From assembly GCA_947085185.1 (NCBI GenBank), contig CAMTVK010000003.1:149047-213046 (forward strand): a stretch of DNA of 64,000 bases. Reading direction: 5' to 3'. The position numbers were made by a program, and so were the translations under genes. This document shows positions 49,404-64,000 of the stretch, piece after piece. This DNA comes from Candidatus Fraserbacteria bacterium. Lineage in GTDB: Bacteria; Bipolaricaulota; Bipolaricaulia; RBG-16-55-9; DRXL01. The first letter of the stretch is position 1, and each line of letters starts with the position of its first letter. Under the pieces are notes generated by a model. That model was given only the letters and a program-made list of their open reading frames with translations, was not told the origin of the DNA and ran no database searches.

Positions 49404-50558
49404 ATGCAGAATCGCACATGGTTCGGCAGGATTCTGACATTCCTGCTTGTGGCGATGCTCTTGGTCGTAGGGGCGACCGGATCGGCCCAGGACGACAAGA
49501 GCGTCAAGGATAAGGTGGCTCAGCTCGAGAAACAGCTCAAAGAGCTGGAAGCCGTGGTCAAGTCGCTCTCCATTGAGCTGCAGAAGCTCACCCAAGCCGG
49601 AACCGGCGAGATCGAGAACATCCGGCCGAGGCTCTTTGCTGTAGAGCAGCTGGCCAAAGATCTCTCGTTCGACCTCAAGAAGCTTGGTGGACGGATCAGC
49701 AATCTCGAGGGGCAAGTCGAGAAGCTGGCCGAGCTGCCCCAGCAAGTGATGGACCTCAAGTACAGTGTTGGGGAGCTCGCTAGCCGCATGAAGGCCAACG
49801 AGTTGGCCATCGGGCAGCTGCGCGATCAGCTTGAGAAGCTTGCGGGGATGCAGGCGCTCGTCATCAATTTGCAAGGGATGGTGGGCACTCTTACCAACCG
49901 TGTGGAGGGCACGGAGAAGGGCCTCGCTGCTCTCACGGACCAGGTGGGCAAACTCCAGGCGCTCACTCCGTTGGTGAAGGGCCTCCAAGACACAACGGCG
50001 AACTTAAGCGTTCGTGTGGGGCGCATTGAAGAGATGCTGGTCAAGCATACTCAACAGCTGGAGCAGCTGTCGGGCTTGCCCGGTGCTGTCGTGAACATTC
50101 AGAGCTCGGTGGGCGAGCTGGCCAGCCGCACCAGCAGCTTGGAGGGCAATTTTGCGCGACTGAGCAATATCGTCGCGTCGTTACAAGAGATGGTGAGCAA
50201 GCTCTCTGGACGTCTCGATGCTGCAGAAGCGCGTGACGACGAGACAGCGAGAAAGTTCAGCCAACTTGCGGACGGCTTCAGCAAGCTCTTGATCGACGTC
50301 GAATCTCTTAAGATCAAGATCAACGAGCTGCAAGATCGTATTGCGAAGCTTAAGGTGCCGCAGCCGGTGGAGATGCCCGATGTCAAAGCGCTCGTCCAGC
50401 AAGCTGTGGCGGAGAAGACCAAGGACTTGCAGGCGCAGTTGGCACAAGCCAAGAAAGAAGCACAAGAAGCCAAGGCTGCTGTGGAGGGCGCCAACAGCTT
50501 AGCGCTCATTGCTCTTGTAGCGGGCTTGGCTGGAGTCTTGATCGGGTTCTTGTTCTAA
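49404..50558 (+). CDS. exported long coiled-coil protein with C-terminal membrane anchor
   Basis: Signal peptide, about 330 aa of heptad repeats, C-terminal ALIALVAGLAGVLIGFLF. Confidence 0.8.
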   Translation: MQNRTWFGRILTFLLVAMLLVVGATGSAQDDKSVKDKVAQLEKQLKELEAVVKSLSIELQKLTQAGTGEIENIRPRLFAVEQLAKDLSFDLKKLGGRISNLEGQVEKLAELPQQVMDLKYSVGELASRMKANELAIGQLRDQLEKLAGMQALVINLQGMVGTLTNRVEGTEKGLAALTDQVGKLQALTPLVKGLQDTTANLSVRVGRIEEMLVKHTQQLEQLSGLPGAVVNIQSSVGELASRTSSLEGNFARLSNIVASLQEMVSKLSGRLDAAEARDDETARKFSQLADGFSKLLIDVESLKIKINELQDRIAKLKVPQPVEMPDVKALVQQAVAEKTKDLQAQLAQAKKEAQEAKAAVEGANSLALIALVAGLAGVLIGFLF

Positions 50559-50688: not shown

Positions 50689-52671
50689 TTAGCACGCGCC
50701 GGAGGTGAGCCACATATCCTGGCCTGGAGCAAGAGAATCGATTTGGGCGCACCGCCGGACCGCGAGTCTTCCCTTACTCCACCCTTCAAGCGCAATCTGC
50801 AAACCTCGCCTCGCAGGGATAGTTAGGGTTACCCAAGCTTGTCCAACGACGGGGATAGCGCGCTCCGGAAGGCCCAATGCAACAACCTTGATCTGATCAA
50901 TGCTCTTAAATTCGGTCAGATCGATGTGCACATCGGCGGAGTCAAGCAGCGCTAATAGATCTTGGGCGCGCCAGCCCTCAGTGTCAGCCGATGGCCCACT
51001 CCCCCAGACGCCCATCAAGACTTCTAAATCTGTTAAAGCCCAGCCGTTGAAGTCAGCCCGCAGCTCTCGATGGAGCAGTCCATCGCCGTTGAAGTCGAAC
51101 CGTGCATAGATAGACTCAGGAGTCGGACAGTTTTGGGGGTCGGCTTCATGCACACAGCCGTCGCCGTTGAGGTCTTTCTTGCGATGATTGCGCGTGCCGT
51201 CAAGATTTTTGCCCTCGACATAGAGCAGTGCGTCCCGAAAAGCTCTGAAATCGCGCATATCTATATTTCCGTCGCCGCGCAGGCCGTCGGGGCAGAGATT
51301 TTCAGTTTCGTGACCTTGTGCGCCTACTCTGAGATTGCCGTCGGGAGTGCAGTCGTCTACGTCCACCAGAGCGCGCTGGACCGGCCGACCCCGACGCAGT
51401 GAGTCGAGCGCGATGAGGGCACCGAAGGCGTCGATTCTAGGAGCAGGCCCTTCGCCGTTGGGGCCGCGACCCCCGGCGCTCTCCGGCTCAATCGCCCGTG
51501 CTGATTTCTGCAAAAGCTCTTTGATCTCTAAGACGGTCAAGTTCGGATCGAAAGCCAGCAAATAACCGATCAAGCCCGTGACATGCGGGGCGGCCATCGA
51601 AGTGCCGTCAAGTGTATCGTACTTCTCTCTCAGCACCGTACTGAGCACTCGGCCCCCGGGGGCCGAAAAGTGCCCGCCGACGTTGGAGAAATCTGATTTT
51701 CTGAAAGAATTCTCGCCAGACAGGATCGCATCGAACGATTCGATCACCAAAATATTTTCGGAGCGTTTGAAGGATTGGCCGTCAATCTCAAGATCGGGCG
51801 CGAGCGCGGCCCAGTTGAGCGGGCTGGCCCATTGCGCGTGAATCTCTGTGGGATAGTTGAAGCGCTTGGGGCTGTCGTTCCCAGCAGCAGCGACGAAGAG
51901 CACATTCGGATAGAGAGCGGCGAGGCGGCGCATGAACAGCCCATGCTTGACGACGAGCTGCTGTGCCTCCCCATCGAGATTGGGATTGACTTTGAGGCGC
52001 GTATTCACGGGCCAGTTGTAGCTCATGCTCACGTTGACGACGCGAATTTCTGGATAATTCTTGAGCAAACCCGCGAGAGTCTCAAGCAGCGTTTCCCAGG
52101 AGTTTCGCCAGTCTTGGCCTTGGGGAATCTTTGGAGATATGCCGATCATCTGCGCGAACGGATTGATCCCGTCAATGCCCAAACCGTTATTGAAAGTTGC
52201 TCCGATGATCCCGGCGACGTGAGCACCGTGATAGTTTGTAACTGCGCCCGATTTGGTCTTCCCATCGTCGCTCAGCATAACAGTTTTCAGATTCTTGAGA
52301 TCAGGGTGGTCGTCAAGCCCGTCGCCGTCGCGGTCTTCAAAACCAGCATCGAGAATCCCAATGAGAAATCTCTGAAAATATCCGGTGCGCTGGACGTAGT
52401 CATTAAGATTCCAAAGCTGAGGAACTCTTATAGCTTCTAATCCCCAGTTGCCGTCGGTCTCTCTGCCTGAAGAAGGGGGCCAATTCCAGCGCCAGGGATT
52501 GGGATTCAGCCCAGAGGGCACATCAGAAGAATTGTCCTTGACGACGGGGTCTTGCGCGTTACTGGGGGCAGGGATGATGGCCAGGAGAAAAGCTTTTGTC
52601 GCAGGCTCGCTTGAGCGGAGCCCGCCCACCAGCACAAGCGCCAAGAAGAGCAAGCGCAGCGCGCGGTCCAT
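50689..52671 (-). CDS. secreted S8 subtilase with C-terminal Ca-binding (dockerin/EF-like) motifs
   Basis: ILDAG, HGAHVAG, AAAGN, GTSMAAPHV; DGNIDMRD, DLNGDG, DFNGDG. Confidence 0.88.
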   Translation of the reverse strand: MDRALRLLFLALVLVGGLRSSEPATKAFLLAIIPAPSNAQDPVVKDNSSDVPSGLNPNPWRWNWPPSSGRETDGNWGLEAIRVPQLWNLNDYVQRTGYFQRFLIGILDAGFEDRDGDGLDDHPDLKNLKTVMLSDDGKTKSGAVTNYHGAHVAGIIGATFNNGLGIDGINPFAQMIGISPKIPQGQDWRNSWETLLETLAGLLKNYPEIRVVNVSMSYNWPVNTRLKVNPNLDGEAQQLVVKHGLFMRRLAALYPNVLFVAAAGNDSPKRFNYPTEIHAQWASPLNWAALAPDLEIDGQSFKRSENILVIESFDAILSGENSFRKSDFSNVGGHFSAPGGRVLSTVLREKYDTLDGTSMAAPHVTGLIGYLLAFDPNLTVLEIKELLQKSARAIEPESAGGRGPNGEGPAPRIDAFGALIALDSLRRGRPVQRALVDVDDCTPDGNLRVGAQGHETENLCPDGLRGDGNIDMRDFRAFRDALLYVEGKNLDGTRNHRKKDLNGDGCVHEADPQNCPTPESIYARFDFNGDGLLHRELRADFNGWALTDLEVLMGVWGSGPSADTEGWRAQDLLALLDSADVHIDLTEFKSIDQIKVVALGLPERAIPVVGQAWVTLTIPARRGLQIALEGWSKGRLAVRRCAQIDSLAPGQDMWLTSGAC

Positions 52672-52753: not shown

Positions 52754-53531
52754 TCAAGTCCTTGCAAGCGCAAGGTCTTCAGCGATCTCGCGTATCCTCT
52801 GGGGATCAGGGAACTCTATACGACAGCGATCACGACGGATCAGGCCTCGCTTGATAAATTTGCACAGCACCACCGAGACGCTCTCTGGGGTGCTGCCCAC
52901 AAGATCAGCAATATTATAGTTGCTCAGCAGCAGCTCATTACTCTGGAGGGAGAATAGCTGAGAATGATTGCACAAACGTTCGTAATCTGCCCCCCCCCCC
53001 CCCGAATTGAGCAAACGTTTGCTTTTCGTGTAGATAACTTAACAAATAGGCAATCTTCTCTTCGATGCTGGCGTGGAGCGCAGAGCTTAGGCGACGTTGC
53101 ACGGCACCAGCGATTTGAGCAACTCGGCGACTGATCTCGCCCAAAAATTCCGGGCGACGACGTATCAGCTCAAGGAGCTGAACGCGGTCGAGCCGGATGG
53201 CTATGGTCTTAGAGAGCGTTTGGGCGGAGGTGTCAAACTCCGGTTCTTGAGCGAGCAGCTCACGCGCGCCGAGCAGCTCTCCGGGGCCGCAGATGTCTAT
53301 CCCGGCGACCTTGCCGCGCACGGTGCGTCGGGTGACTATGACGAAACCGCTACAGATGCTGTAACAGCACAGCACTGGGTCTCCCTGCTCGATCAGGATC
53401 GTGCCGCGGCGATAGATGCTCAAGCGCGGGGTGATGAGCTCCTTCGGCAGCCAATGGAGCAGACAGCCCTTGTTGGGGCAGCAGCTTGTCTGGTGGGAGC
53501 GCGCAGGAGAATCTGTCAATTTGATGGCCAT
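52754..53531 (-). pseudogene. Crp/Fnr family regulator split by a frameshift in a G14 tract (possibly phase-variable)
   Basis: cNMP-binding-fold domain in 52938..53531; HTH LSNYNIADLVGSTPESVSVVLCKFIKRGLI in 52754..53014; C14 at 52990-53003. Confidence 0.8.
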
Positions 53532-53567: not shown

Positions 53568-53768
53568 TTAGGGAAGGGGGTTGGGGTTAGGTTTTTCCGC
53601 CTCGAGCTCGTCCAGGTATCTCTCGACGGCCTCCAGCACGAGAAAGTTGAGCGACCGTTTTTGCTGTTGTGCGATCTTCTTGAGGCGCTCCAGCAGCTGT
53701 TGGTGTCGTTTTTCTTTGGGGATATAGACTGTCAGCTGCCAGGGCGTCTCCCCGTTTCGCCGAGCCAT
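53568..53768 (-). CDS. ribbon-helix-helix DNA-binding protein
   Basis: LTVYIP…LLERLKKIAQQQKRSLNFLVLEAVERYL; GAGGTG SD. Confidence 0.8.
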   Translation of the reverse strand: MARRNGETPWQLTVYIPKEKRHQQLLERLKKIAQQQKRSLNFLVLEAVERYLDELEAEKPNPNPLP

Positions 53769-53826
53769 CAGGCTCACCTCATTATACTCTAGTTGAGTCT
53801 ACTTGGGAAGTGCCGGGGGCGTCCAT

Positions 53827-53904
53827 AAGCTAGCTTAAGTTCGAGCTTAAGCTAGCTTAAGTTCTTTCTTAAGGAAGCCGAAGTTCTTTCTTAAGCTAGC
53901 TTAT
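53827..53904. promoter_or_regulatory. 22-bp-period operator/iteron-like array
   Basis: Units start at 53827, 53849, 53871 and 53893 (AAGCTAGCTT+AAGTTCNNNCTT); the palindrome TAAGCTAGCTTA occurs 3 times. Confidence 0.7.
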
Positions 53905-53958
53905 GGTCGGGGAGGGGAGGTCGCGCTAGAGTGAGGGAGCAGTGAGCGGTCCATCTCA

Positions 53959-54140
53959 GAGGGAGCGAGCGGGGCGGGGTGCCGAGTCCGGGGATGGCCC
54001 ACAGGGAGCCCCGCACCCTGCCCCCAAGACAGGTGAAGGGAGGTGAGAGATGGAGCAGGTTCACAGGGCCCAGGGCGAGCCCTAATCTTCGCCCAAAAGT
54101 CAGACCAAATCTATCTAAAGGAGGAGATGTCGATGTTCAA
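53959..54140 (+). repeat. cassette leader repeat L1 (hairpin, uORF, SD)
   Basis: Near-identical to 56194-56313, 61643-61780 and 63808-64000. Confidence 0.9.
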
Positions 54141-54768
54141 CAAGAAATTCAAGCTCATCGCAACGGCGGTTGGGTTGGTGGCGGTGCTGGCGTTGGGGTT
54201 GGCAATGCCGGGGGCGACGCAACCATCTCCGGACTGTCCTCCTGTTGGAATACCTTGCGTTGATAGAGTCGAACTTGTAAAGGGCCTTCAGAATGCTTTC
54301 GCAGGCCTAACGGCTAGCACAGAAGATTTACTGGATTTCGAGCAAGCTGTCTTCTGGTCAGATGGTGGACCTCGTCAGATAATCTATATACCTCCCCATA
54401 CTGCCTCCGGCATCTGGGACATTGCGCGGCGACTTCGTGCTGGTGAGAAGATACCTGATATTCCATTTGGAGGACTTTATGTAATAGAAGATGCTACAGG
54501 CCTTTTCACCTTCAGGACCCCCGCGGCCGTCAAGCTACGGTTACGGGATGGCAATAGGGTGGTCTTCGTTAATTCCGAGGGAGACGAGGTGATGACGATA
54601 CCGGCAAATCTTGACCTTACTACACCGATTCCACAAAACCCAAGTAGGGCCATCTTCACGGTAGAAATCCGAAACAACTGGTGTGCCAAGATCAAGATCT
54701 TTTGTGTGGGGGAGGCTTCTATACATAGCAGTCTATTGTTGAGTCACCCGGATGGGTGCACACAATAA
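54133..54768 (+). CDS. secreted precursor P1 (array family)
   Basis: Signal MFNKKFKLIATAVGLVAVLALGLAMPGATQ; shared LTAxT…YIPPH…GxLYV domain; Cys-containing C-terminus. Confidence 0.8.
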   Translation: MFNKKFKLIATAVGLVAVLALGLAMPGATQPSPDCPPVGIPCVDRVELVKGLQNAFAGLTASTEDLLDFEQAVFWSDGGPRQIIYIPPHTASGIWDIARRLRAGEKIPDIPFGGLYVIEDATGLFTFRTPAAVKLRLRDGNRVVFVNSEGDEVMTIPANLDLTTPIPQNPSRAIFTVEIRNNWCAKIKIFCVGEASIHSSLLLSHPDGCTQ

Positions 54769-54921
54769 GGCTGCCTACGGATCGGTATGCCCGCCCCCGA
54801 GTACAGTTGTGCAGTGAGTGACTCCTACTTGACTTATATACATAGGGAGCAGGGACCTCTGACATTTGACAAGCCTGGCCCTGCTCCCTTAAACTTTTTT
54901 TCATTAACAAGAGGTGCTCAT

Positions 54922-55704
54922 ATGTGGTGGGGTTTCAAATTAGCAGGCTTCTTCGTTGCAATTCTGGGATTATCTCTCGTCTTTTCGCTCTTGGTCAACT
55001 TGTGGAGTCAAAAGGCTCTACCGCGTGACCCCTCCACCGGCAAACTCAACATTAAGGTTGATCCTTGGATTCTCGCATTGGTGGTCTTAGGCACATCACT
55101 TTTGATGGTGCGGTATCTTGACCATCGGCCTCTCGCGAGTCTGGGGCTTCATTTTTACTCTTCGTGGTGGATGGAGCTTGCTCTGGGAATCGTTTTTGGA
55201 AGCGCCATGTTGATTAGTATGGCAACCCTGCTGTGGGCCTTCAGCAGGCAGAATCCATTTATGAAGTTCTCGATGACCCCATATTCCACACTGCTAAGCC
55301 ATTTGCGTGGCTCTCTCGGAGAAGAGCTTGCTGTTCGTGGTTATCCCCTTCAGGTTCTTATAGATGCGCTTGGCACATATCCTGCTCTCTTAGCAACCTC
55401 TGCTTTCTTTGGGCTTTTGCATTATCGAGATCAGCGCTTGATCGGAGCGATAGACACCGGGTTGGTCGGTTTGCTTTTGGCTACGACTATACTCAAAATG
55501 AATGCCCTCTGGCTAGCGGTCGGCATCCATTTCGGTTGGAACTTTGTAGAAGCGCTTCTCAGTCTGGGAGAAGTCACTTCCCGAGAGCGCTATCTGGCCG
55601 AGATGATGGTCATTGTCCTTTTCTGGCTTCTTCTGATATTGCTGCCGATCCAACCGCACCCGGAGATGGAAAGGCTTTGGAACGAGTATATTGTGCAGCC
55701 TTAG
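54922..55704 (+). CDS. CPBP/Abi (CAAX) intramembrane metalloprotease
   Basis: EELAVRGY, FGLLH, HFGWN. Confidence 0.88.
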   Translation: MWWGFKLAGFFVAILGLSLVFSLLVNLWSQKALPRDPSTGKLNIKVDPWILALVVLGTSLLMVRYLDHRPLASLGLHFYSSWWMELALGIVFGSAMLISMATLLWAFSRQNPFMKFSMTPYSTLLSHLRGSLGEELAVRGYPLQVLIDALGTYPALLATSAFFGLLHYRDQRLIGAIDTGLVGLLLATTILKMNALWLAVGIHFGWNFVEALLSLGEVTSRERYLAEMMVIVLFWLLLILLPIQPHPEMERLWNEYIVQP

Positions 55705-55707
55705 AAG

Positions 55708-55780
55708 GGGCCACTACAACAATGAATCTGCGCAAAGTTCTTCAGACGCTGGAGCTGGCCGCGGGCTGCGGGGCCGTAGG
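55708..55780 (+). repeat. cassette closing repeat R1
   Basis: CAGACGCTGGAGCTGGCCGCGGGCTGCGGGGCC core, shared with R2-R4. Confidence 0.7.
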
Positions 55781-55961
55781 CTACTTGGCTTTCTTCAAGA
55801 AATCCTCCGGCGTGAGAGCCATCTCCCTCTGCTCCGCTTGGTTGACTCTTGAGAATTTGGTAAGAGGCCTTCCAAAGTGCCTTCCTTGTCCCTGGCTCGA
55901 CCTCCTTGGTCAGCCAGTTGATGAGGACGTCTGTGTCCAAGAAGACCCTAGTAGCGGCCAT
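55781..55961 (-). pseudogene. PIN-domain (VapC-like) toxin, internally deleted
   Basis: N-terminus VFLDTDVLINW; out-of-frame C-terminus ALTPEDFLKKAK*. Confidence 0.7.
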
Positions 55962-56139
55962 ACCCGCTCTCGCGCAGCTCTCTCAGATATTCTGTGCTGG
56001 TCTTCTCTTTGGGTATGGCGTCCTCAAAGGCTCCCAGCAGCTCGTCCACCACACCAGTCTTCTTGGTGGGGGCAGGGGCACTGATTGTGTAGCCGAAGTT
56101 TTCCATCAGCTTTACCAACTCTTGGAGAGCTAGGGGCAT
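55948..56139 (-). CDS. putative antitoxin
   Basis: 63 aa ending STEYLRELR (VapB-like tail); overlaps the PIN start. Confidence 0.65.
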   Translation of the reverse strand: MPLALQELVKLMENFGYTISAPAPTKKTGVVDELLGAFEDAIPKEKTSTEYLRELRESGYGRY

Positions 56140-56193
56140 AGCTTGGTCCTCCTCTCTGAGCTCGATTGTACACAACTCTCACGCCATCAGCCA

Positions 56194-56313
56194 GATGGCC
56201 CACAGGGAGCCCCGCACCCCGCCCCAAGACTCAAGGTGAAGGGAGGTGAGAGATGGAGCAGATTCACAGGGCCTAGGGCGAGCCCTACCTTCGCCCGAAA
56301 GTCAGACCAAATC
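56194..56313 (+). repeat. cassette leader repeat L2 (5'-truncated)
   Basis: GATGGCCCACAGGGAGCCCCGCACCCCGCCCC…GTCAGACCAAATC. Confidence 0.88.
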
Positions 56314-56321
56314 CATTTGAA

Positions 56322-56383
56322 CAAGTTCCAAGTGACAAGTTACAAGTTCTGAACTTTGAACTTGGAACTTTAAACTTTGAACT
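56322..56383. repeat. heptamer palindromic repeat (CAAGTTN)4 / (GAACTTN)5
   Basis: CAAGTTC CAAGTGA CAAGTTA CAAGTTC T GAACTTT GAACTTG GAACTTT AAACTTT GAACT. Confidence 0.8.
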
Positions 56384-56384
56384 G

Positions 56385-56632
56385 TCTCACAGCGGTGCTG
56401 GTGTTGGGGTTGGCAATGCAAGCAGCAGCAAGCGAAGTATTACTAGACCCCGAGGGTCGTGAAGAAGTTTCCGAGCGGCATCGAGTTCATCCGGGCAGGC
56501 ATGGTGCTGTTTGAATCTCTTCCTGGTACTGCTGGTGACGCCAAAACCCTTGACGCAGCGCCCTTAGATGACAAGTGCAACTGCGCGGTAGCAGTAGCGA
56601 TCATAATCGCTGCTTTGATCGCACTGCTCTAG
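56385..56632 (+). pseudogene. remnant of secreted precursor P2
   Basis: AVLVLGLAM (signal tail) joined to VLLDPEG/VVKKF…DDKCNCAVAVAIIIAALIALL* across a frameshift. Confidence 0.6.
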
Positions 56633-56776
56633 CATAATCGCCTCTGATAGGCTAGCAACCGAAACAAGAGATCAGGCCGGTGGTTCAGTCCGCTCCTGCT
56701 GAGCCCGCCGGCATTATTTGACAAAGCGGTGGGCATTAAATTAAATTAAGATAGCATCAACAAAGGGGGCAAGTGG

Positions 56777-57511
56777 TTGATTGAGGTTTTTGACCTAAAG
56801 AAGCATTTTGGCACCACCAAGGCAGTAGATGGGGTCAGCTTTGCTGTACAGCGGGGCGAGATCTTCGGACTCTTGGGCCCTAACGGGGCTGGCAAGACCA
56901 CAACCCTGCGCATGCTCGCTACTATTCTGCAACCGACAGAGGGCGACGCGATCATTAACGGCTATAGCATATACCGAGACCCACAACAAGTGCGCCGACA
57001 ACTGGGAGTGCTTGCCGAACAGACCGGTCTCTATGACCGCCTGACTGCCGAAGAAAATGTGCGTTACTTTGCCCGCTTACGCCGACTCCCAGAAAGCGTC
57101 ATCAATCGTAGGATCGCCGAGCTCTTTCCCAAGCTGGGCATCGATAAGTACGCCCACAAACGCGCCGGACAACTCTCCAAGGGGATGAAGCAAAAGGTGG
57201 CCATCGCCATCGCGATCATTCATGACCCCCCTGTAATGATATTCGATGAGCCCACCTCGGGTCTGGACATTATCGCAGCCCGCGAGGTGCGAGAGTTCAT
57301 TAAGGCCTGTAAGCACTCAGACAAGGCTATGATTCTCTCAACGCACATCATGTCCGAAGCCGAGAAGCTCTGCGACCGGATTGCCATCATCAATGGTGGA
57401 AAGATCGTGGCAAACGGAACATTTGCCGAGCTACAGCAGCATAGCGGCAAGAGAGAGCTAGAAGAAATCTTCGTTAAGCTGGTTGCAGAGGGGGAAGCTT
57501 ATGGAGCTTAA
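56777..57511 (+). CDS. ABC transporter ATP-binding protein (NatA-like)
   Basis: GPNGAGKTT, LSKGMKQK, FDEPTSGLD, STH. Confidence 0.92.
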   Translation: MIEVFDLKKHFGTTKAVDGVSFAVQRGEIFGLLGPNGAGKTTTLRMLATILQPTEGDAIINGYSIYRDPQQVRRQLGVLAEQTGLYDRLTAEENVRYFARLRRLPESVINRRIAELFPKLGIDKYAHKRAGQLSKGMKQKVAIAIAIIHDPPVMIFDEPTSGLDIIAAREVREFIKACKHSDKAMILSTHIMSEAEKLCDRIAIINGGKIVANGTFAELQQHSGKRELEEIFVKLVAEGEAYGA

Positions 57512-58709
57512 TCAAGTGCGGGTCGTTCTGGGCAAGGAATTGGTGGACTCGTTCCGCGACCTGCGGAGCACATGGCTGATGATTTTAACCCCGGTTGCTC
57601 TGGCGCTGCTCTATTTCTTCGGCGCGGCTTACGGCCCCTCAGCTCAGCTAGAGAAACAGCGTGAGATGGCACAAGAAATTGCAATCGTTACGAATAGTCG
57701 CAATGAACGCTTAACTCGGGAGTGGAAAGAATTGTTGGGCAAAAGGGGTCTCATCATGAAAGAAACAATCGATCCGGAGCGGGCCTTGGCCGAGCGGGAT
57801 CTGGCGGCGGTGCTCGTCTTGCCTAACGATTTTTCAGATCTCCTCGAGCGCGGCGAGCCTGCCTCGGTCGTGCTGAAGTTCGATGCTCTGAGGATTGAAT
57901 CTCAGATCGCACGCGAGAAACTTAGAGCTTTCTTGCAAGATTACGAACAGACCGTCATCGCGCAGCGGTTGGCGGACCGTAATGTCCCACCAGATGTCCT
58001 AGAAGCCGTGGTCGTCCGCGAAGAGAACACAGCCCCCCGTGGTGGCGTGGCGTGGATGCGGGTGGGACTCATGCTGTCGTTTCTCTTGCTTGGTTGGAGT
58101 GTAGCAAGCGTCTTCAATGTGGCGGCGGATCTGACAGCGGGGGAAAAGGAGCGCGGCACGTTGGAGGCGCTGCTCGCCATGCCCACGGGGCGCTTGGACA
58201 TAGTACTGGGGAAATTTCTGGCCGTGTTGGTCATAACTCTGTGCACGATGGCTTCCAGCGTACTGAGCTTATGGCTCTTGGTCGAGCTTCTCGGTCCTAC
58301 ACTGCTCTCCAGCGGGTTCCTGCAGGATTTTACGCACGCGCTAGCTCCTCCAGTCTTGGGACCGGCGGTCGTTGTCGCGAGCTTCACCGCGGCCTTGATG
58401 GGAGCACTGAGTTTAGCTCTTTGTCTGCGGGCCCGCAGTTCGCGCGAGGCCCATAGCTACTCTATGCCTATCTTCCTAGGAGTCGCGTTTGCTATATTCT
58501 TCGTAGAGTTCCGCGAGATTGGGATCTCACTGCCAGCTCTGGTTATCCCGGTGTACAATGCCGTGTTGATCCTCCGAGAGCTGTTCCAAGGGCAGCTGAA
58601 TCCAACGCATTTGGGGGTCACTCTGGCTGTTCTCGCCCTGTGCGCGGTTGTTGGACTCTGGCTCGCAGTGCGCGCCTTCAAGAGCGAAAAGGTTTTGTTC
58701 CGGCAGTAG
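57501..58709 (+). CDS. ABC-2 type permease (NatB-like)
   Basis: KELVDSFRD, AGEKERGTLEALL…VLGKF. Confidence 0.88.
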   Translation: MELNQVRVVLGKELVDSFRDLRSTWLMILTPVALALLYFFGAAYGPSAQLEKQREMAQEIAIVTNSRNERLTREWKELLGKRGLIMKETIDPERALAERDLAAVLVLPNDFSDLLERGEPASVVLKFDALRIESQIAREKLRAFLQDYEQTVIAQRLADRNVPPDVLEAVVVREENTAPRGGVAWMRVGLMLSFLLLGWSVASVFNVAADLTAGEKERGTLEALLAMPTGRLDIVLGKFLAVLVITLCTMASSVLSLWLLVELLGPTLLSSGFLQDFTHALAPPVLGPAVVVASFTAALMGALSLALCLRARSSREAHSYSMPIFLGVAFAIFFVEFREIGISLPALVIPVYNAVLILRELFQGQLNPTHLGVTLAVLALCAVVGLWLAVRAFKSEKVLFRQ

Positions 58710-58760
58710 AGGCACTACAGGCCTGCAACAAGGAGCCCTGTGGACGCTGGTCCGGGGCCA
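58710..58760 (+). repeat. cassette closing repeat R2 (degenerate)
   Basis: GGCACTACA…CTGC…GGACGCTGG…CGGGGCC. Confidence 0.5.
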
Positions 58761-58761
58761 C

Positions 58762-58844
58762 GCCGCCCGCTGCACCTCATAGCCTGCCCCACGTAAGAAG
58801 TTTACCGTCGCCTGCCAGACATCTTGATCACTGAGAAAGCGCAT
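58762..58844 (-). pseudogene. DUF5615 PIN-like toxin, truncated
   Basis: MRFLSDQDVWQATVNFLRGAGYEV; TAATG-coupled to DUF433; similarity ends at R2. Confidence 0.7.
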
Positions 58845-59074
58845 TAGATGTGAGTGAGATGGACCTCTTCCGACTTGACCAACTCCGTAGCATAGCGCAC
58901 GCAGGCTTGCACATCCTCTACTGTCAAGTCGGGGTAATATTGCTCGACGATCTGGGCAAAGGGGATGCCAGCCTGGACAAGCTCCAGCACACACCAGACG
59001 GGAATGCGAGTGCCCTCTAGAATGGGCTGACCAAAATGGATCTGCGGATCGACGACGATGCGACGCACAGCCAT
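58844..59074 (-). CDS. DUF433 antitoxin-like protein
   Basis: IVVDPQIHFGQPILEGTRIPV…YPDLTVEDVQACVRYA. Confidence 0.9.
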   Translation of the reverse strand: MAVRRIVVDPQIHFGQPILEGTRIPVWCVLELVQAGIPFAQIVEQYYPDLTVEDVQACVRYATELVKSEEVHLTHI

Positions 59075-59136
59075 CTGCTCCTCTCTGTAACAGTAGCTGG
59101 CCTCATTGTATAGCTATCCTGGCCTTGAGGCAACTT

Positions 59137-59835
59137 GTGTACAACAAGGAGTTCAAGCTCATCGGAACGGCGGTCGGGTTGGTAGCGGTGCTGATGATGG
59201 TGTTAGCGGTGCCGGGGGCGACGCAAGGCTCCTTCTCACGTCAAGCGCTTGTCAGCGCTTTAAAGAGTGAAATTGGTCCTCTGCTAACCGCTGCTACCGC
59301 TGAGTTGATTAATCCAGAGAATGCGACGTTTTTCTCGTCCAATAGGGCTACGTCAGCTTATATTCCACCCCATCCTTCTGCCTTCTCAGCTCAGCTCTTT
59401 AGAGATTTTATGTCCGGTAAGGCAGAAGGTATCTTGATGGGGGCCGTTTATGTAAGCGAGGATGTTCCTGGATCTTTGAACAAAGGTCTCTATCGGATTA
59501 AAGCTCTTAACCGAGAATGGGTGGTGGTGCTCAATCAAGAAGGCGAAGTGGTAAGAAGGGCCCGGATTCGGTGGTTAGTGGATGATGTAGAAGGTATCGC
59601 CTCAAATCCTTCGTACTGGGGAAAGGACAACTATATACAACTTTCTGTTGGCAGTGTAGATAACATTCATCGTTTCAACGGCGGCGGGGGCGGGGGCGGG
59701 GGCGGGACTACACAGCCGCCTCCACCGCCACCGCCGCCTGAGCCTCAGCCTTTGTCTTTCAAGCACACCGTCTCAATCTGTACGCCTACCATTATTATTG
59801 TATATTGTTTCACCTTTATGGAGGTTCACATTTAG
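59137..59835 (+). CDS. secreted precursor P3 (array family)
   Basis: (M)YNKEFKLIGTAVGLVAVLMMVLAVPGATQ; LTAAT…YIPPH…GAVYV; Gly9/Pro8 linker; C-x8-C tail. Confidence 0.8.
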   Translation: MYNKEFKLIGTAVGLVAVLMMVLAVPGATQGSFSRQALVSALKSEIGPLLTAATAELINPENATFFSSNRATSAYIPPHPSAFSAQLFRDFMSGKAEGILMGAVYVSEDVPGSLNKGLYRIKALNREWVVVLNQEGEVVRRARIRWLVDDVEGIASNPSYWGKDNYIQLSVGSVDNIHRFNGGGGGGGGGTTQPPPPPPPPEPQPLSFKHTVSICTPTIIIVYCFTFMEVHI

Positions 59836-59937
59836 GCTTGGCAAACCCTAGCTTTTTGCTACCAGCCTAAGACGAAGAGGTGGCCGAGGGAAGTTTGACA
59901 CCCGCTTCCCTCGGCCATTATGATATAAGGGGGTTTT

Positions 59938-60930
59938 ATGTTCAAAGTCCTGCTGAAGATTGTAGCATTCTTCAAAGTCTTGTTGAAGATCGTCGCATTC
60001 CTCGTGCTGGCCTTTATTTTGGGTGTCGTTCTAAACCCGTTTATTAACCTGCTGCTCTACTGGCTACTCCAGCCTCTACGGTGGCTTGGATTACCGGAGA
60101 GACTTCTGAATGATCTGGGGCTGACAGGCAAATTTGAGTGGTTTATTATCAAGGGCTTTTCTTTTGTACCGGCCTTGCTGATAGCTTCGCTAGTTATGAC
60201 CCGCCTACTCGAGCACCGCCCTATGGCTTCCCTTGGATTTAGCTTGTCCCCACGCTGGCTCAAGGAATTTGCTCTTGGTATCCTGCTTGCCTTCGTAGCT
60301 ATGACTCCTGTAGTAATCATGCTCTACCTTTTAAATCCTTATATATCAATCCGCCCACTTTCTGGAGTTGGAATGCAAGATCCAAGGACTTACATCAGTA
60401 CTCCCAACGACTGGTTCACCGTTGGTATTGTAGTAGCATTGTTAACCCTTTTGGCGGCAGCCTTTGAAGAACTGATCTTTCGCGGCTATCTCTTCCAGAC
60501 CCTGATGGCGGCAATAGGCCAGTGGCCAACCATCTTAGCGACTTCTAGTATTTTTGCCGTCTTACATTTTAGGACTCATGGGGTCAGCGCTATAGTTGCA
60601 GCAGGCATCGGAGGGCTGATCATGGCTTTACTGTATCTTAGGAGTAAATCTTTGTGGGTAGTTATAGGCTTTCACGCTGGGGTCAATGGATTTATGGGTA
60701 TAGCAGTAATTCTAGGGCTGATTTTTCATAAAAGAGAACTCGGAGAGAACTGGCTCTACCCTGGGATAACGGGGGCCATGGCACTGATCTTGGCCATATG
60801 GTCACTGAAATATCTGAAACCCTCGGCGGAGATGGAAGCGCTCTGGCAGCAGTATGTGCCCATCGCCCAGCCGTGGGCGCAATTGAAGGCATGGTGGGCC
60901 AAACGCAAAGGCCAACGAGAGGTCAGCTAA
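59938..60930 (+). CDS. CPBP/Abi (CAAX) intramembrane metalloprotease
   Basis: EELIFRGY, FAVLH, HAGVN; shares HRPxASLG and EMExLWxxY with 54922..55704. Confidence 0.9.
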   Translation: MFKVLLKIVAFFKVLLKIVAFLVLAFILGVVLNPFINLLLYWLLQPLRWLGLPERLLNDLGLTGKFEWFIIKGFSFVPALLIASLVMTRLLEHRPMASLGFSLSPRWLKEFALGILLAFVAMTPVVIMLYLLNPYISIRPLSGVGMQDPRTYISTPNDWFTVGIVVALLTLLAAAFEELIFRGYLFQTLMAAIGQWPTILATSSIFAVLHFRTHGVSAIVAAGIGGLIMALLYLRSKSLWVVIGFHAGVNGFMGIAVILGLIFHKRELGENWLYPGITGAMALILAIWSLKYLKPSAEMEALWQQYVPIAQPWAQLKAWWAKRKGQREVS

Positions 60931-60971
60931 CGCTACGGACGCTGGAGTTGGCGGGCTGCGGGGCCATAAGG
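60931..60971 (+). repeat. cassette closing repeat R3
   Basis: GGACGCTGGAGTTGGCGGGCTGCGGGGCCATAAGG. Confidence 0.7.
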
Positions 60972-60976
60972 AGCAC

Positions 60977-61360
60977 CTACTCCACTCTTACCTCCCCCGT
61001 GCGCAAATCGATTATCACACACCGCCCACGCAAAAAGTCCAACCCTAATACCCCATCGACCGTCGCACTCGGCGGCAAGGTGTGACAGAGCACCGGAAAA
61101 TCACGGCGCTCCTGCCCTAACGCCTCTACCCGCTCTATCGACACCTGCGGGACAAATTCCACACCGCTCCCCGTCGTCATCGACACGCGCTGCGGCACTG
61201 CTGCTGGATCATACCCCACCAATACCAGCACATCCCAGCTTACCACTGTCCGTGTGGCTCCAGTGTCCAGCGCCAAGCGCACCACGGTATCGCCCGAGGG
61301 GCCAAAGAGCCGCGTCGGTACAACGATCAGCCCGGCAGTGGGATCGAAGCGCAGGCTCAT
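60977..61360 (-). CDS. single-domain retropepsin-like aspartyl protease
   Basis: ALDTGAT…DGVLGLDFL. Confidence 0.85.
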   Translation of the reverse strand: MSLRFDPTAGLIVVPTRLFGPSGDTVVRLALDTGATRTVVSWDVLVLVGYDPAAVPQRVSMTTGSGVEFVPQVSIERVEALGQERRDFPVLCHTLPPSATVDGVLGLDFLRGRCVIIDLRTGEVRVE

Positions 61361-61584
61361 AAGACCACAGCGACTTCGTCAGGGAGCTTGCCCGTATAGA
61401 GAATCGCCGAATGCTTGGGGCGCAGCTCTCGTGCCTTGCGGTAGACCTCATCGCGGTCCTTGCTGTGCCATAGGACTTTCCCTGCTATGATGGTGAGAGA
61501 CTCGGTCGCCTTCGGATCTTCGAGCAAGACCCATTCTGCTGGGAACCGTTCTTGGATTTCAGCTAAGGAGAGCACTTCGTCCAT
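61357..61584 (-). CDS. small partner protein (DUF5678-like) of the aspartyl protease, TA-like pair
   Basis: ERFPAEWVLL…GKVLWHSKDRDEVYRKA; ATGA overlap. Confidence 0.7.
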   Translation of the reverse strand: MDEVLSLAEIQERFPAEWVLLEDPKATESLTIIAGKVLWHSKDRDEVYRKARELRPKHSAILYTGKLPDEVAVVL

Positions 61585-61642
61585 ACATACCCCTTTCATA
61601 GAGAGCTCGCTTTATCTTAGAGCTATGGAGGCGCCAGGTCAA

Positions 61643-61780
61643 GGAGCCCTGCACCCTGCCCCAAGACTCAAGGTGAAGGGAGGTGAGAGATGGAGCAGGT
61701 TCACAGGGCCCAGGGCGAGCCCTAATCTTCGCCCACAATCTAGACCAAATCTATCTCACAGAAGGAGATGTCGATGTTCA
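61643..61780 (+). repeat. cassette leader repeat L4 (5'-truncated)
   Basis: GGAGCCCTGCACCCTGCCCCAAGACTCAAGGTGAAGGGAGGTGAGAGATGGAGCAGG…GGAGATGTCGATGTTCA. Confidence 0.9.
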
Positions 61781-62727
61781 ATAGGTTCTGCAGGATAAGC
61801 CAACTGGCAAAGATATTCAGCGTCATTACGATGTCAGCCTTGTTGCTCTGGGCAACATCCGGTATGTCAGTGGTTAGTCAACAGGTCCAGATGCCTACCA
61901 GAAACCAAATCGTTCAAGGGCTTAGAGCGAAGGTGGCAGCGCTGACAGCAGCGGAAGGAGATATCTTTGATATTGAGAATACAGCCTTCTACTCTGATCC
62001 AGGTGTGTTTTCTCTAGCGTTCATTCCCCTTCACCCTTCTTCGCGATCTTTGCAACTTATTCCCAAGCTTGTGGAGGAGGACATAGGGGCTGTGACCTTC
62101 GGGGTTCTCTATCTTGAGGGAGATTGGCCAGACACGGACTTGCCGCTGAAAGCCGGTATCTACACGTTGAAACTCAAGAGCGATCACTCTGTCGTAGCTG
62201 TTGCGGAAGACGAGGAGTTTCAAATTTGCGCTGGCAGTTGGAGACTGCTACCTGCACCTGTGTTTTCGACACCTGTGCCCCCTATCACCGAGTTCTCTTT
62301 CAGCTACCAGCCGGAGCCTAGCACTAGTACAGGCACTCCTATGTTAGAAAGTCTGAATATCCTTACGGCGCTAGCTTTTATATTGGTTTCAACAGAAAGG
62401 GATGATGCCTATGAAAGGATGCCCTATGAAAGATCGGCTTGGTATAGCGTTGCTTGTTCTATGTATGCAGAGTATAGTATTATATATGGTGATGATCGTT
62501 GCCTATGGGCTGTATTTGCCAATAACGATTATACTAATCATCTCATCTTCTCGGCCGCTTTGTGGCTATGGGTCGCTCTTCACCACATGAGAAAGAGAGC
62601 AGCTCTTGAAAGCACCTCTTCACTGAGACAGCTCAACTTTGTGATAGGTGCTGCATTCGTGATCGTCATTGCAACTCTTACTACCGCTGGCATCGCTATC
62701 ATTTGCGCTATCCAAGGAAGCAAGTAA
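61774..62727 (+). CDS. secreted precursor P4 (array family) with hydrophobic multi-helix C-terminus
   Basis: LTAAEGDIFDIENTAFYSD…FIPLHPS…FGVLYLEGD…GIYTLKL shared domain. Confidence 0.8.
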   Translation: MFNRFCRISQLAKIFSVITMSALLLWATSGMSVVSQQVQMPTRNQIVQGLRAKVAALTAAEGDIFDIENTAFYSDPGVFSLAFIPLHPSSRSLQLIPKLVEEDIGAVTFGVLYLEGDWPDTDLPLKAGIYTLKLKSDHSVVAVAEDEEFQICAGSWRLLPAPVFSTPVPPITEFSFSYQPEPSTSTGTPMLESLNILTALAFILVSTERDDAYERMPYERSAWYSVACSMYAEYSIIYGDDRCLWAVFANNDYTNHLIFSAALWLWVALHHMRKRAALESTSSLRQLNFVIGAAFVIVIATLTTAGIAIICAIQGSK

Positions 62728-62793
62728 AGTCGTAATATTTACGGCATTCTCAGTATGCCTACATTCTTAGCGAGCTGACAAGGGAAGAGACCT

Positions 62794-62865
62794 GGGCCAA
62801 GTTGCAGAATATGGACCTGCATGAGGTGCTCCAGACCCTGGAGCGGGCCGCGGGGACATGAGGCC
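62794..62865 (+). repeat. cassette closing repeat R4
   Basis: ATGGACCTGCATGAGGTGCTCCAGACCCTGGAGCGGGCCGCGGGGAC, compare R1 ATGAATCTGCGCAAAGTTCTTCAGACGCTGGAG. Confidence 0.65.
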
Positions 62866-63174
62866 TTACTGACGTCCCTTCACGAGCGTCTTGGCACTCT
62901 TTAATCCTTCACGATACTCCTCCACAGTGACCTTGGATCTGACCCCGCGACTAGCTAAGAGATCCATATATTCGCCCACAGAAAGATCAGCTAATTTGGC
63001 CCCCTCACTCAGCGAGACCCGATCCTCTACAAAGAGCTTGATCGCATACTCCCGCCGCACCAGCGCCACCCCAGACCGCAAAGCCTGCTTGAGCAGAAGC
63101 TCCTCCTCCACCGGCTCGTACTTACTGAGATCCTTCAGGAACTCCTGCACCTCTTGTGGAACTTCAACGCGCAT
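62866..63174 (-). CDS. UPF0175 family antitoxin-like protein
   Basis: AIKLFVEDRVSLSEGAKLADLSVGEYMDLLASRGV. Confidence 0.85.
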   Translation of the reverse strand: MRVEVPQEVQEFLKDLSKYEPVEEELLLKQALRSGVALVRREYAIKLFVEDRVSLSEGAKLADLSVGEYMDLLASRGVRSKVTVEEYREGLKSAKTLVKGRQ

Positions 63175-63694
63175 GCAGATCACCTCGTGCTTGTTCTAGG
63201 AGAGCGCTGCTATACCATCCATACCTCTCCAGCTGATGGAAGGCCTGCCACGCTTTGTCCCTATTAATTATACGCTCTCTGCGCAGCTCCACCAACACGT
63301 CCAAAGCTGTAGCAGAGTGCAAGCCTAAGGCCTTGCAAGCGGTGATGCCCCTTTTGTCGTCCATGAGCACTGTGTCTAGTCCCAAGTCTTGAGCTAAGGC
63401 GATCACGTCTCGCTCACCACCACGCAGCCCAAAGAGAGTTTGGATAGTTTGTTGACGGCTAGGACGGGGATGAAGCGTTTGCAGATGGTGCGCTTGGAAG
63501 TGGAGCTCCAATTGGAGGGCATCGGCATGACCTCTGGTCTTGCCCTTGAGCACGGCCTCCTCGTAGACACTTGGGGGGACGATGATGTGTACCCTGGTTA
63601 GGAGACTATCCAAAAGGCTACTCTTGGTGAGGAGGATAAGGCTGGAGGCGTCGGCAACTACTGTTGGCTTCGTGGTGGATTGCTTCCTAGCCAT
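63164..63694 (-). CDS. PIN-domain protein (DUF3368-like)
   Basis: VVADASSLI, VPPSVYEE, GERDVIALA, LMDD. Confidence 0.85.
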   Translation of the reverse strand: MARKQSTTKPTVVADASSLILLTKSSLLDSLLTRVHIIVPPSVYEEAVLKGKTRGHADALQLELHFQAHHLQTLHPRPSRQQTIQTLFGLRGGERDVIALAQDLGLDTVLMDDKRGITACKALGLHSATALDVLVELRRERIINRDKAWQAFHQLERYGWYSSALLEQARGDLHAR

Positions 63695-63807
63695 TGGAGC
63701 TCAGGCGTAGTGTAGCATGGAAAGAGCAGAGCGGTGAAGGACGGGCTTCTCCTTGCATGCGGAAAGGGTTCTCTAGTACTGTTCCCTTCGCAAGATGTTC
63801 GCAAGGC

Positions 63808-64000
63808 GAGAGTGAGGGAGCGAGCGGGGCGGGGTGCCGAGTCCGGGGATGGCCCACAGGGAGCCCCGCACCCCGCCCCCAAGACTCAAAGTGAAGGGAG
63901 GCGAGAGATGGAGCAGACCCGCAGGGCCCAGGGCGAGCCCTACCTTCGCCCGAAAGTCAGACCAAATCTATCTCACAGAAGGAGGAGATGCTGATGTTCA
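63808..64000 (+). repeat. cassette leader repeat L5 (full length); next precursor P5 starts at ATG 63994
   Basis: Perfect GGGGCGGGGTGC/GCACCCCGCCCC stem, uORF, AAGGAGGAG SD, ATGTTCA at the window end. Confidence 0.9.

Follow-up and report, generated by a model that had tools for sequence, protein, structure and literature searches.

What is stored in the gene array that occupies positions 53959-64000 of a 64,000-nucleotide (nt) window of Candidatus Fraserbacteria DNA, and by which means is its content varied? The window, i.e. the whole stretch of DNA that was analysed, reaches the end of contig C3 of a genome (G000) of 1.72 Mb and 96.8% completeness. The basic layout of a cassette in this array can be written as L-P-partner-R<-TA, with a leader repeat L as left anchor, a gene P for a secreted precursor, a partner gene, a closing repeat R as right anchor, and a convergent pair of genes resembling toxin-antitoxin (TA) systems. 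Contigs of the genome of the window are designated C##, genomes G###, loci in related genomes L###, and the copies of the leader repeat L1 to L5. In our assessment, there is an even chance that the locus is a strain-variable cassette array of Bipolaricaulota which likely stores secreted peptide toxins together with the immunity genes that match them, with expression as a weapon likely limited to the first cassette, with cassettes likely exchanged by homologous recombination at the two short anchors and the TA slot between the anchors swapped separately. Such a toxin and immunity bank with one expression site ranks ahead of an array in which the partners are maturation enzymes and of one used for signalling.

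A preliminary description, made from the letters of the window, had recognised four recurring units and the start of a fifth at the window edge, and all of these were found between 53959 and 64000 by analysis of open reading frames, repeats and Pfam domains. The Pfam matches comprised two CPBP proteins, an ABC ATPase, a permease, DUF433, an aspartyl protease and UPF0175, while DUF5678 was weak and below the cut-off. The features of the array are as follows.

53933..54132, + strand: L1, the full P leader and left recombination anchor, with a conserved hairpin at about 53971-54024 and a ribosome binding site
54133..54768, + strand: P1, intact precursor at the predicted expression site (open reading frame and model)
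54922..55704, + strand: CPBP partner of P1 (PF02517, 6e-14), with promoter-like TTGACA-18-TAAACT at 54866-54895
55716..55772, + strand: R1, non-coding remnant of the 3′ end of gene M (sequence comparison)
55701..56175, − strand: TA-like pair A, an intact 75-amino-acid (aa) gene and a PIN gene with a 290-nt internal deletion (intact homologue in L066, PF01850, 1.5e-12)
56194..56632, + strand: L2, an AAGTT/AACTT repeat (about 56317-56391) and the P2 remnant, the tail of which matches full-length P in L090 and P0034
56777..58709, + strand: ABC ATPase and permease partner (Pfam), with a promoter-like site at 56718-56747
58738..59074, − strand: worn R2 (58738-58759), a DUF5615 stub that breaks off at about codon 28, and intact DUF433
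59125..59835, + strand: P3, intact frame with L lost; only 89 nt of signal-coding DNA in common with other copies
59938..60930, + strand: CPBP partner of P3 (PF02517, 6e-19), with promoter-like TTGACA-18-TATGAT at 59895-59924
60933..61587, − strand: worn R3 (60933-60968) and a DUF5678/aspartyl protease pair (PADLOC PDC-M08B, 1e-10)
61640..62727, + strand: L4 (5′ part lost) and the P4 fusion (DNA alignment with L034 and L082)
62754..62861, + strand: R4, which over 78 nt has 95% identity to the coding M end of C23
62866..63694, − strand: UPF0175 gene (PF03683, 2e-10) and a 176-aa PIN-like gene (motif by eye; PADLOC PDC-S70, 2e-15)
63814..64000, + strand: L5 without array promoter, followed by the opening codons of the next P; the contig ends here

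In unit 2, the start and core of P are gone and the tail is retained. Unit 4 had been described as P4 without a separate partner, followed by DUF3368 and UPF0175. P4 and UPF0175 were found, but P4 has lost half of its tail and is fused by a deletion to a frameshifted small membrane partner, and the DUF3368 label of the 176-aa protein was not recovered by Pfam.

Following the array beyond the contig end, as had been suggested for counting the units, brought it to about eight units with seven TA-like pairs, since L and R recur on C23 and at one end of C28. C23 carries P5-CPBP-R facing an MNT/HEPN pair, then P6-M facing a PIN pair, then L and the start of a P, while C28 carries a deleted P and CPBP, R facing a PIN pair, half an L, a P stub, a second M and then murE. 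The order C3-C23-C28 is likely; the end of C3 overlaps by 25 nt with one mismatch, and the first and last 146 nt of C23 are identical. C23 was also considered as an amplified circle and rejected, as its long pieces in run X1 had a depth of 420-625 compared with 442-585 on the array of the window. Five small contigs of G000 (C11, C25, C26, C27, C30) bear flagellar, sporulation-type or insertion sequence genes, four of them have low GC content, and they are probably foreign to the bin; C25-C27, C30 and C11 had no match to L, R or P.

Leader L was found in 10 of 13 genomes of the same genus, and the content of the array differs between genomes wherever it was compared, as the preliminary description had expected for cassette order and content. 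P itself was matched by a profile search in 18 of 184 genomes of the phylum. A profile built from five copies retrieved 81 representatives among 1.84 billion sequences, of which one match of 912 aa looks spurious, and a search for longer fused forms of P found none. Neither Pfam, NCBIfam and PADLOC nor the sequences in the PDB gave a family or solved-sequence match, and ten family members checked in their source records were called 'hypothetical protein' or had no name. In a model of P1 (53 rows, pLDDT 77), an N-terminal helix precedes a confident core of about residues 45-165 and a poorly ordered tail. For the core, the best Foldseek hit had an E value of 0.099 and the best VIA hit a Z of 4.5 (root-mean-square deviation (rmsd) 4.7, 99 aligned); two look-ups in the ESM Atlas (best 0.89) led to clusters without name and serve as a lead only.

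The P genes encode 190-260 aa and have their own ribosome binding site and signal, and from its basic-hydrophobic start P is predicted to carry a signal peptide. The tails are short, contain at least two cysteines in 38 of 53 proteins (cysteine frequency 0.041 in the tail vs 0.0025 in the core) and include a hydrophobic 15-mer in 35 of 53, compared with 3 of 53 in the core window. Identity to P1 is 0.3-0.5 in the signal and core blocks, apart from two blocks with 0.14-0.24, and drops to 0.05-0.12 in the tail. Thus the precursor family is polymorphic, as described before, without a family match and with variable tails, and it combines a trafficking N-terminus with a variable C-terminus in the manner of polymorphic toxins.

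The slot behind P is occupied by one of two CPBP classes, by M, by membrane proteins of 63-136 aa, by an ABC exporter, by an aspartyl protease or by an ICMT-like methyltransferase; these partner types belong to families without relation to one another. For linkage statistics, 50 of 56 units were kept (six were left out as fragments, tandem P or partnerless), and two TA labels among them were set right by hand. Pairs of units with the same tail shared a partner (at least 55% identity) in 38 of 57 cases, compared with 24 of 1168 for other pairs, a value reached by none of 2000 shuffles. The partner class also changes with the tail inside clades of close cores (the P1/P6 clade and the t8/t9 clade), and a partner 75% identical to the CPBP of P1 stands behind a P1-like gene in L088. 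The P tail hence travels with its partner gene.

Decay is one-sided. Among 43 L-to-R units counted by hand (L091 was judged separately, and some frameshifts are possibly assembly errors), both genes were intact in 32, P was broken or missing beside an intact partner in 10, both were broken in one, and the reverse was not observed. Unit 2 of the window, which lies outside this set, follows the same rule with a P remnant and a retained partner.

The promoter evidence consists throughout of motif matches, i.e. predicted sites. The head of the array comprises the following features.

50689..52671, − strand: subtilase (S8) gene (PF00082, 4e-29), adjoining Crp/RHH/L in L049 and L068, with a remnant in L035
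52754..53531, − strand: Crp-family regulator (cNMP and HTH_Crp halves), split at a G14 run at 52990-53003
53568..53777, − strand: ribbon-helix-helix (RHH)-like regulator, divergent from the array (weak RHH Pfam matches; NF048017, 2e-7, below cut-off), heading the array in relatives
53820..53909, no strand: palindromic array of CTTAAG boxes, likely operator (inverted repeat, fold z -6.6), conserved before first units
53904..53932, + strand: predicted array promoter TGGTCG-17-TAGAGT, a conserved motif under the threshold of a generic scan

The CTTAAG palindrome and the motif TGGTY(A/G)-17-TAGAGT between the divergent RHH gene and L1 are conserved in relatives. Of 10 first units, 8 have the array promoter motif in front of them, compared with none of the 29 L copies located behind a TA pair; elsewhere it was seen before two internal L copies after a small reversed operon and before 6 of 16 unclassified copies. 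This distribution marks L as the leader of P. Partner genes have a sigma-70-like site within 190 nt after the P stop in 42 of 52 cases (2-mer shuffles predict 6.7, and the reverse strand has 9), and of the four + strand sites of the window scoring at least 10/12, three lie before CPBP1, the ABC pair and CPBP3. It is therefore likely, as far as predicted sites can tell, that there is one expression site and that the other P cassettes are silent. Rfam gave no relevant family for leader and operator, only a chance miRNA match on the operator palindrome. A contig of run X1 is one base shorter at 52990, and the Crp homologues in L049 and L068 are split by G11 runs in the same sense; the homopolymer is a candidate for a phase-variable switch, with a homopolymer error being also possible. 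The S8 subtilase beside the array head is a candidate maturation protease.

The anchors are not spread over the genome, the content varies and P has no family match, so that none of the three findings that would have spoken against the preliminary description was made. L gave seven matches in the genome at E<1e-9, of which six lie in the array and one is an orphan half-copy on C2, while all six R matches lie within the array, so neither repeat is dispersed. The copies of L at 53959-54140, 56194-56316, 61640-61781 and 63814-64000 are 85-94% alike over 124-188 nt, and no L precedes P3. The L hairpin has a consensus stem of 17 pairs with G-U-tolerant changes and one compensatory pair. R is a recurring closing repeat as described and is the 3′ coding end of the partner gene M: its translation gives the final 25-40 residues of M, and wear has left about 20-35 nt of it in units 2 and 3. 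Non-coding R copies (28 distinct; 29 were found, one frameshifted) differ by 50/36/172 changes at the three codon positions, compared with 56/61/247 for coding M ends, and R identity is 0.84 within a genome or contig (26 pairs) vs 0.77 between them (2054 pairs). Codon-like variation and closeness within genomes are what ongoing exchange with coding M would leave. Staggering was seen at the junctions of partner with R and of TA pair with L, also where the TA type is the same. The data support the reshuffling at L and R that had been proposed before. An AAGTT/AACTT heptamer palindromic repeat at 56317-56391, inserted in unit 2, has similar copies on seven other contigs and is a REP-like, genome-wide element.

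M lies outside the window (C23, C28) and encodes a membrane-anchored protein of about 320 aa with a short N-terminal anchor. No Pfam or NCBIfam family was found for it, and its modelled fold (pLDDT 61) resembles M1/M4 gluzincins (Foldseek E 2.6e-4 to ERAP1; VIA Z 11.1, rmsd 4.9, 224 aligned to 3cia_A). The motif HExxH is present in 7 of 24 distinct copies and HExxE in 17 of 24, followed by a DGLAEY/EGLAEY-type motif; the HExxE copies fit binding as well as cutting. A complex prediction of M with P6 (0.23, mark 0.32) gave no evidence either way, and none of 19 pattern matches to M relatives in viral contigs was confirmed. Among M-carrying relatives, 11 of 13 loci are named Bipolaricaulota or Fraserbacteria, and two short contigs are in a Fimbriimonadales bin.

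The TA pairs occupy a second slot. At least nine pair types were found, all facing R, with their stop codons -2 to 40 nt from the R end in 29 of 30 cases. Intact copies show PIN, DUF5615, HEPN with MNT, HepT and weak ParE domains, i.e. known toxin domains beside an adjacent small gene as in type II and type VII systems. The tail does not predict the TA pair (5 of 21 vs 86 of 507, with 569 of 2000 shuffles as high), nor does the partner (4 of 24 vs 87 of 504). The unit of P, partner and TA pair in the preliminary description hence stands as a layout, but the TA pair is not fixed to P and is exchanged independently of P and partner. Whether the pairs stabilise the array is another matter, and the idea that they are passengers or anti-phage cargo using the anchors, without stabilising the array, has nearly an even chance. 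Besides their independence of P and partner, it is favoured by PADLOC candidate-defence matches of genes in the slot (PDC-S70, PDC-M08B, PDC-S09 and PDC-M05), by R-TA-R-TA stacks without P in L066, L078 and L091, and by a repeated pair in L082. The proposal that TA addiction protects the array from deletion was not borne out. The pairs described for units 1 and 2 are present, but their toxin genes, the PIN gene with its deletion and the DUF5615 stub, are lost, i.e. two of four pairs in the window; unit 4 decayed beside an intact pair; and one relative (G009) has lost the array beside ComEC. On the other side, almost all internal units are followed by a pair with the same orientation, pair types are found again in other genomes, for the most part with 60-97% identity, and the Vibrio cholerae superintegron is reported to be stabilised by TA cassettes (bioRxiv 10.1101/2023.11.17.567518). 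Protection of the array by its TA pairs is doubtful.

In the toxin and immunity bank that we favour, P would be exported by Sec and then cut, and release of the cysteine-rich hydrophobic tail would yield a membrane-active peptide, comparable to SdpC or halocin C8. The SdpC precursor is processed to its C-terminal peptide. The partner would destroy, bind, modify or expel the peptide and would be made constitutively, so that the array would also be an immunity library. A double crossover at L and R would replace P and partner, one at R and L the TA pair, with other units or DNA taken up from neighbours as donors. Modules keeping both anchors could spread, which would explain the retention of a non-coding gene end. 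The TA pairs would hitch-hike in their slot; being oriented towards the cassettes, they may stop read-through and may also put a cost on L-to-L deletions.

Several observations weigh against this reading. For no P was a toxin family or fold match found, and its toxicity is putative. The P core is not constant (22-66% identity among the copies of G000) and its tree largely follows tail type, which indicates that whole genes rather than tips are usually exchanged and points to allelic families rather than one constant carrier. Linkage of tail and partner may be due to nothing more than the lack of an anchor between P and partner gene, and is thus alone no proof of specificity. In G007, an apparently intact first P stands behind a full promoter with its CPBP gene deleted, and a search of this genome (92% complete) with one query found no CPBP homologue elsewhere. 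RiPP-type PCMT-like methyltransferases behind distant P homologues point to modification (RiPP, ribosomally synthesized and post-translationally modified peptide). For the TA slot, two of the four pairs lack their toxin as given above, and the genome has 19 PIN matches anyway. Finally, many of the compared loci come from related populations and are not independent.

Some of these points would suit a different role of the partners, namely that of RiPP-like maturation enzymes that cut or modify their own tail, with immunity located in the P core or elsewhere and with the same array and recombination. Most partners are proteases or methyltransferases, and the P without CPBP in G007 fits a maturation role for that CPBP class. 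Behind more distant P homologues, a DUF3267 zincin or a PCMT-like enzyme follows; one PCMT-like neighbour scanned against NCBIfam scored best with RiPP-system models, below the cut-off. For halocin C8, the immunity protein is reported to be the N-terminal portion of its own precursor (PMC11509114; bioRxiv 10.64898/2026.07.27.741052). Against this role, partners outlast their P by 10 to 0 among the 43 units and have promoter-like sites of their own, and membrane partners of 63-98 aa and an ABC pump are non-enzymes. We regard this role as rather unlikely. In L096-L100 of another family, distant P homologues directly precede proteins of about 400 aa, and the two tested were PCMT-like methyltransferases.

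Less probable still is that the P tails are strain-specific signals or surface identity tags, such as a pheromone, a kin label or a phage-receptor decoy, which the partners process or sense. Peptide signalling, too, typically shows allele-specific pairing, a lipobox-like GGC comes after a hydrophobic stretch in one tail class, and a CAAX protease is implicated in the processing of a signal peptide in S. anginosus (PMC9298176). Yet the partners listed included neither a receptor nor a kinase gene, and M has only its short anchor. Both CPBP proteins of the window belong to PF02517 (52.5 and 68.5 bits, cut-off 22.4) and have the EExxxR, FxxxH and HxxxN motifs, but remain far below the cut-offs of sorting-signal proteases (myxosortase, MrtJ, MrtS; best 41.6 vs 130 and 38.8 vs 75 bits, no equivalog match); there is no constant C-terminal sorting signal, the variable part of P being its C-terminus.

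As for the means of exchange, homologous recombination would be the simplest engine, and the genome has ComEC and two DprA genes. That a site-specific system of the integron or dif type moves the cassettes with L or R as its sites is very improbable: the narrow spacing of TA stop codons to R, the imperfect hairpin in L, the identical ends of C23 and one tyrosine recombinase on the main genome would suit it, but no recombinase lies in or adjoining the array, the genome has no resolvase-family match, junctions are staggered both in L and at the 5′ border of R, the variation of R resembles that of coding DNA, the changes in the L hairpin are of the G-U type as in RNA, and C23 has the same depth as the window in run X1. 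As noted before for the window, no integrase was found at the array head or beside the array; of three PF00589 matches, one is on C17 far off and two are on the low-GC, foreign-looking C30.

The flanks of the array vary among relatives, with a coiled-coil gene or ComEC on the left and murE or a peptidase gene, which we take to be pepP, on the right. The coiled-coil gene of the window (49404-50558) encodes 384 aa with a signal-like start and a C-terminal membrane segment; it also flanks the array in L039 and L063 and has a paralogue on C17. A 5′ remnant of an RHH gene adjoins ComEC on C5 of G000 (L051:7832-7918), where relatives have the array head, which suggests that the array moved in this lineage. 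On C2 (69525-69695; L004:9526-9700), an orphan half-operator with array promoter and half an L is aimed at the end of a murD-like gene, without P. Two small membrane-protein genes face M at the array end in L003:12051-12296 and L071:3700-4050, the first starting with an R-like sequence; they abut the array promoter in L071 and L093, where they connect the end of an array with an array start. L101:1642-3733, from a genome of another family, has RHH, a P homologue and M together, with M facing P and no L detected, possibly an ancestral or rearranged form.

Taken further, the locus could be regarded as an integrase-free counterpart of an integron: a machine with two anchors and two slots. By means of a leader and a reused gene end, RecA and DNA uptake would pass pro-domain peptide toxins of a new class through a single expression site that is regulated and phase-variable, with all immunity genes on and TA or anti-phage modules traded in the alternate slot. 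This extended view is tentative, and we would sooner bet against it. If the toxin and immunity bank holds true, a cassette bank that seems to run without recombinase would be a new way of storing and rotating antibacterial weapons, and it would give the first model of how an uncultured phylum fights its relatives. P adds a precursor family without name, of about 80 clusters at 50% identity, with matched partners. As CPBP, gluzincin-like, ABC and small membrane genes share one slot behind alleles of one precursor, immunity vs maturation by CAAX/CPBP proteins becomes testable by cross-pairing, and the TA slot lends itself to asking whether TA pairs on chromosomes lend arrays stability or merely ride in them. 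No description of such an array was found in the literature, searched by titles and abstract starts, with most subscription journals outside the coverage.

Compared with known systems, the array works like the orphan arrays of contact-dependent inhibition (CDI) and Rhs systems and like an integron, and it is not a member of the integrons or of the SdpC or halocin C8 families. In CDI/Rhs systems (PMC3150448; PMC3967940), one toxin is expressed, silent modules with expressed immunity follow downstream, modules are exchanged between strains as are the cassettes here, and recombination brings an orphan into use. Those orphans are gene fragments fused to a large constant carrier, whereas the cassettes here are whole genes with only the promoter missing, set between two anchors and in alternation with TA pairs, without a CdiA or Rhs domain. 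In bacteriocin loci, roles in immunity, in processing or as a receptor are reported for CAAX proteases (PMC9298176); there a CPBP/Abi protease stands beside a secreted peptide precursor and immunity vs processing is debated, while here a single slot takes many interchangeable partner types, CPBP among them. M resembles M1/M4 gluzincins in its modelled fold and differs by its membrane anchor, its size and the prevailing HExxE.

Halocin C8 ProC8 (PMC11509114; bioRxiv 10.64898/2026.07.27.741052) and SdpC/SdpI of B. subtilis (PMC11995493) also have exported precursors of about 200-280 aa with a C-terminal peptide as the weapon and ABC or membrane immunity genes nearby. Unlike these, P has no sequence match to either: the SdpC family TIGR04032 had no match in the genome (B. 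subtilis control positive) and was absent among the matches of 53 P proteins, the halocin C8 family TIGR04449 had no match in the genome (H. volcanii control positive), and the accessible parts of those sources do not describe them as shuffled multi-allele arrays. The V. cholerae superintegron (bioRxiv 10.1101/2023.11.17.567518) has a head promoter, promoterless cassettes and TA cassettes inside the array, features that recur here, for the promoters at motif level only. It differs from the array described here, in which no IntI was found, staggered junctions in L and R take the place of a fixed crossover point of the attC type (no attC model was run), the two anchors are unlike, and one gene family forms the cargo, with a TA pair in nearly every interval compared with 19 in 179 in the superintegron.

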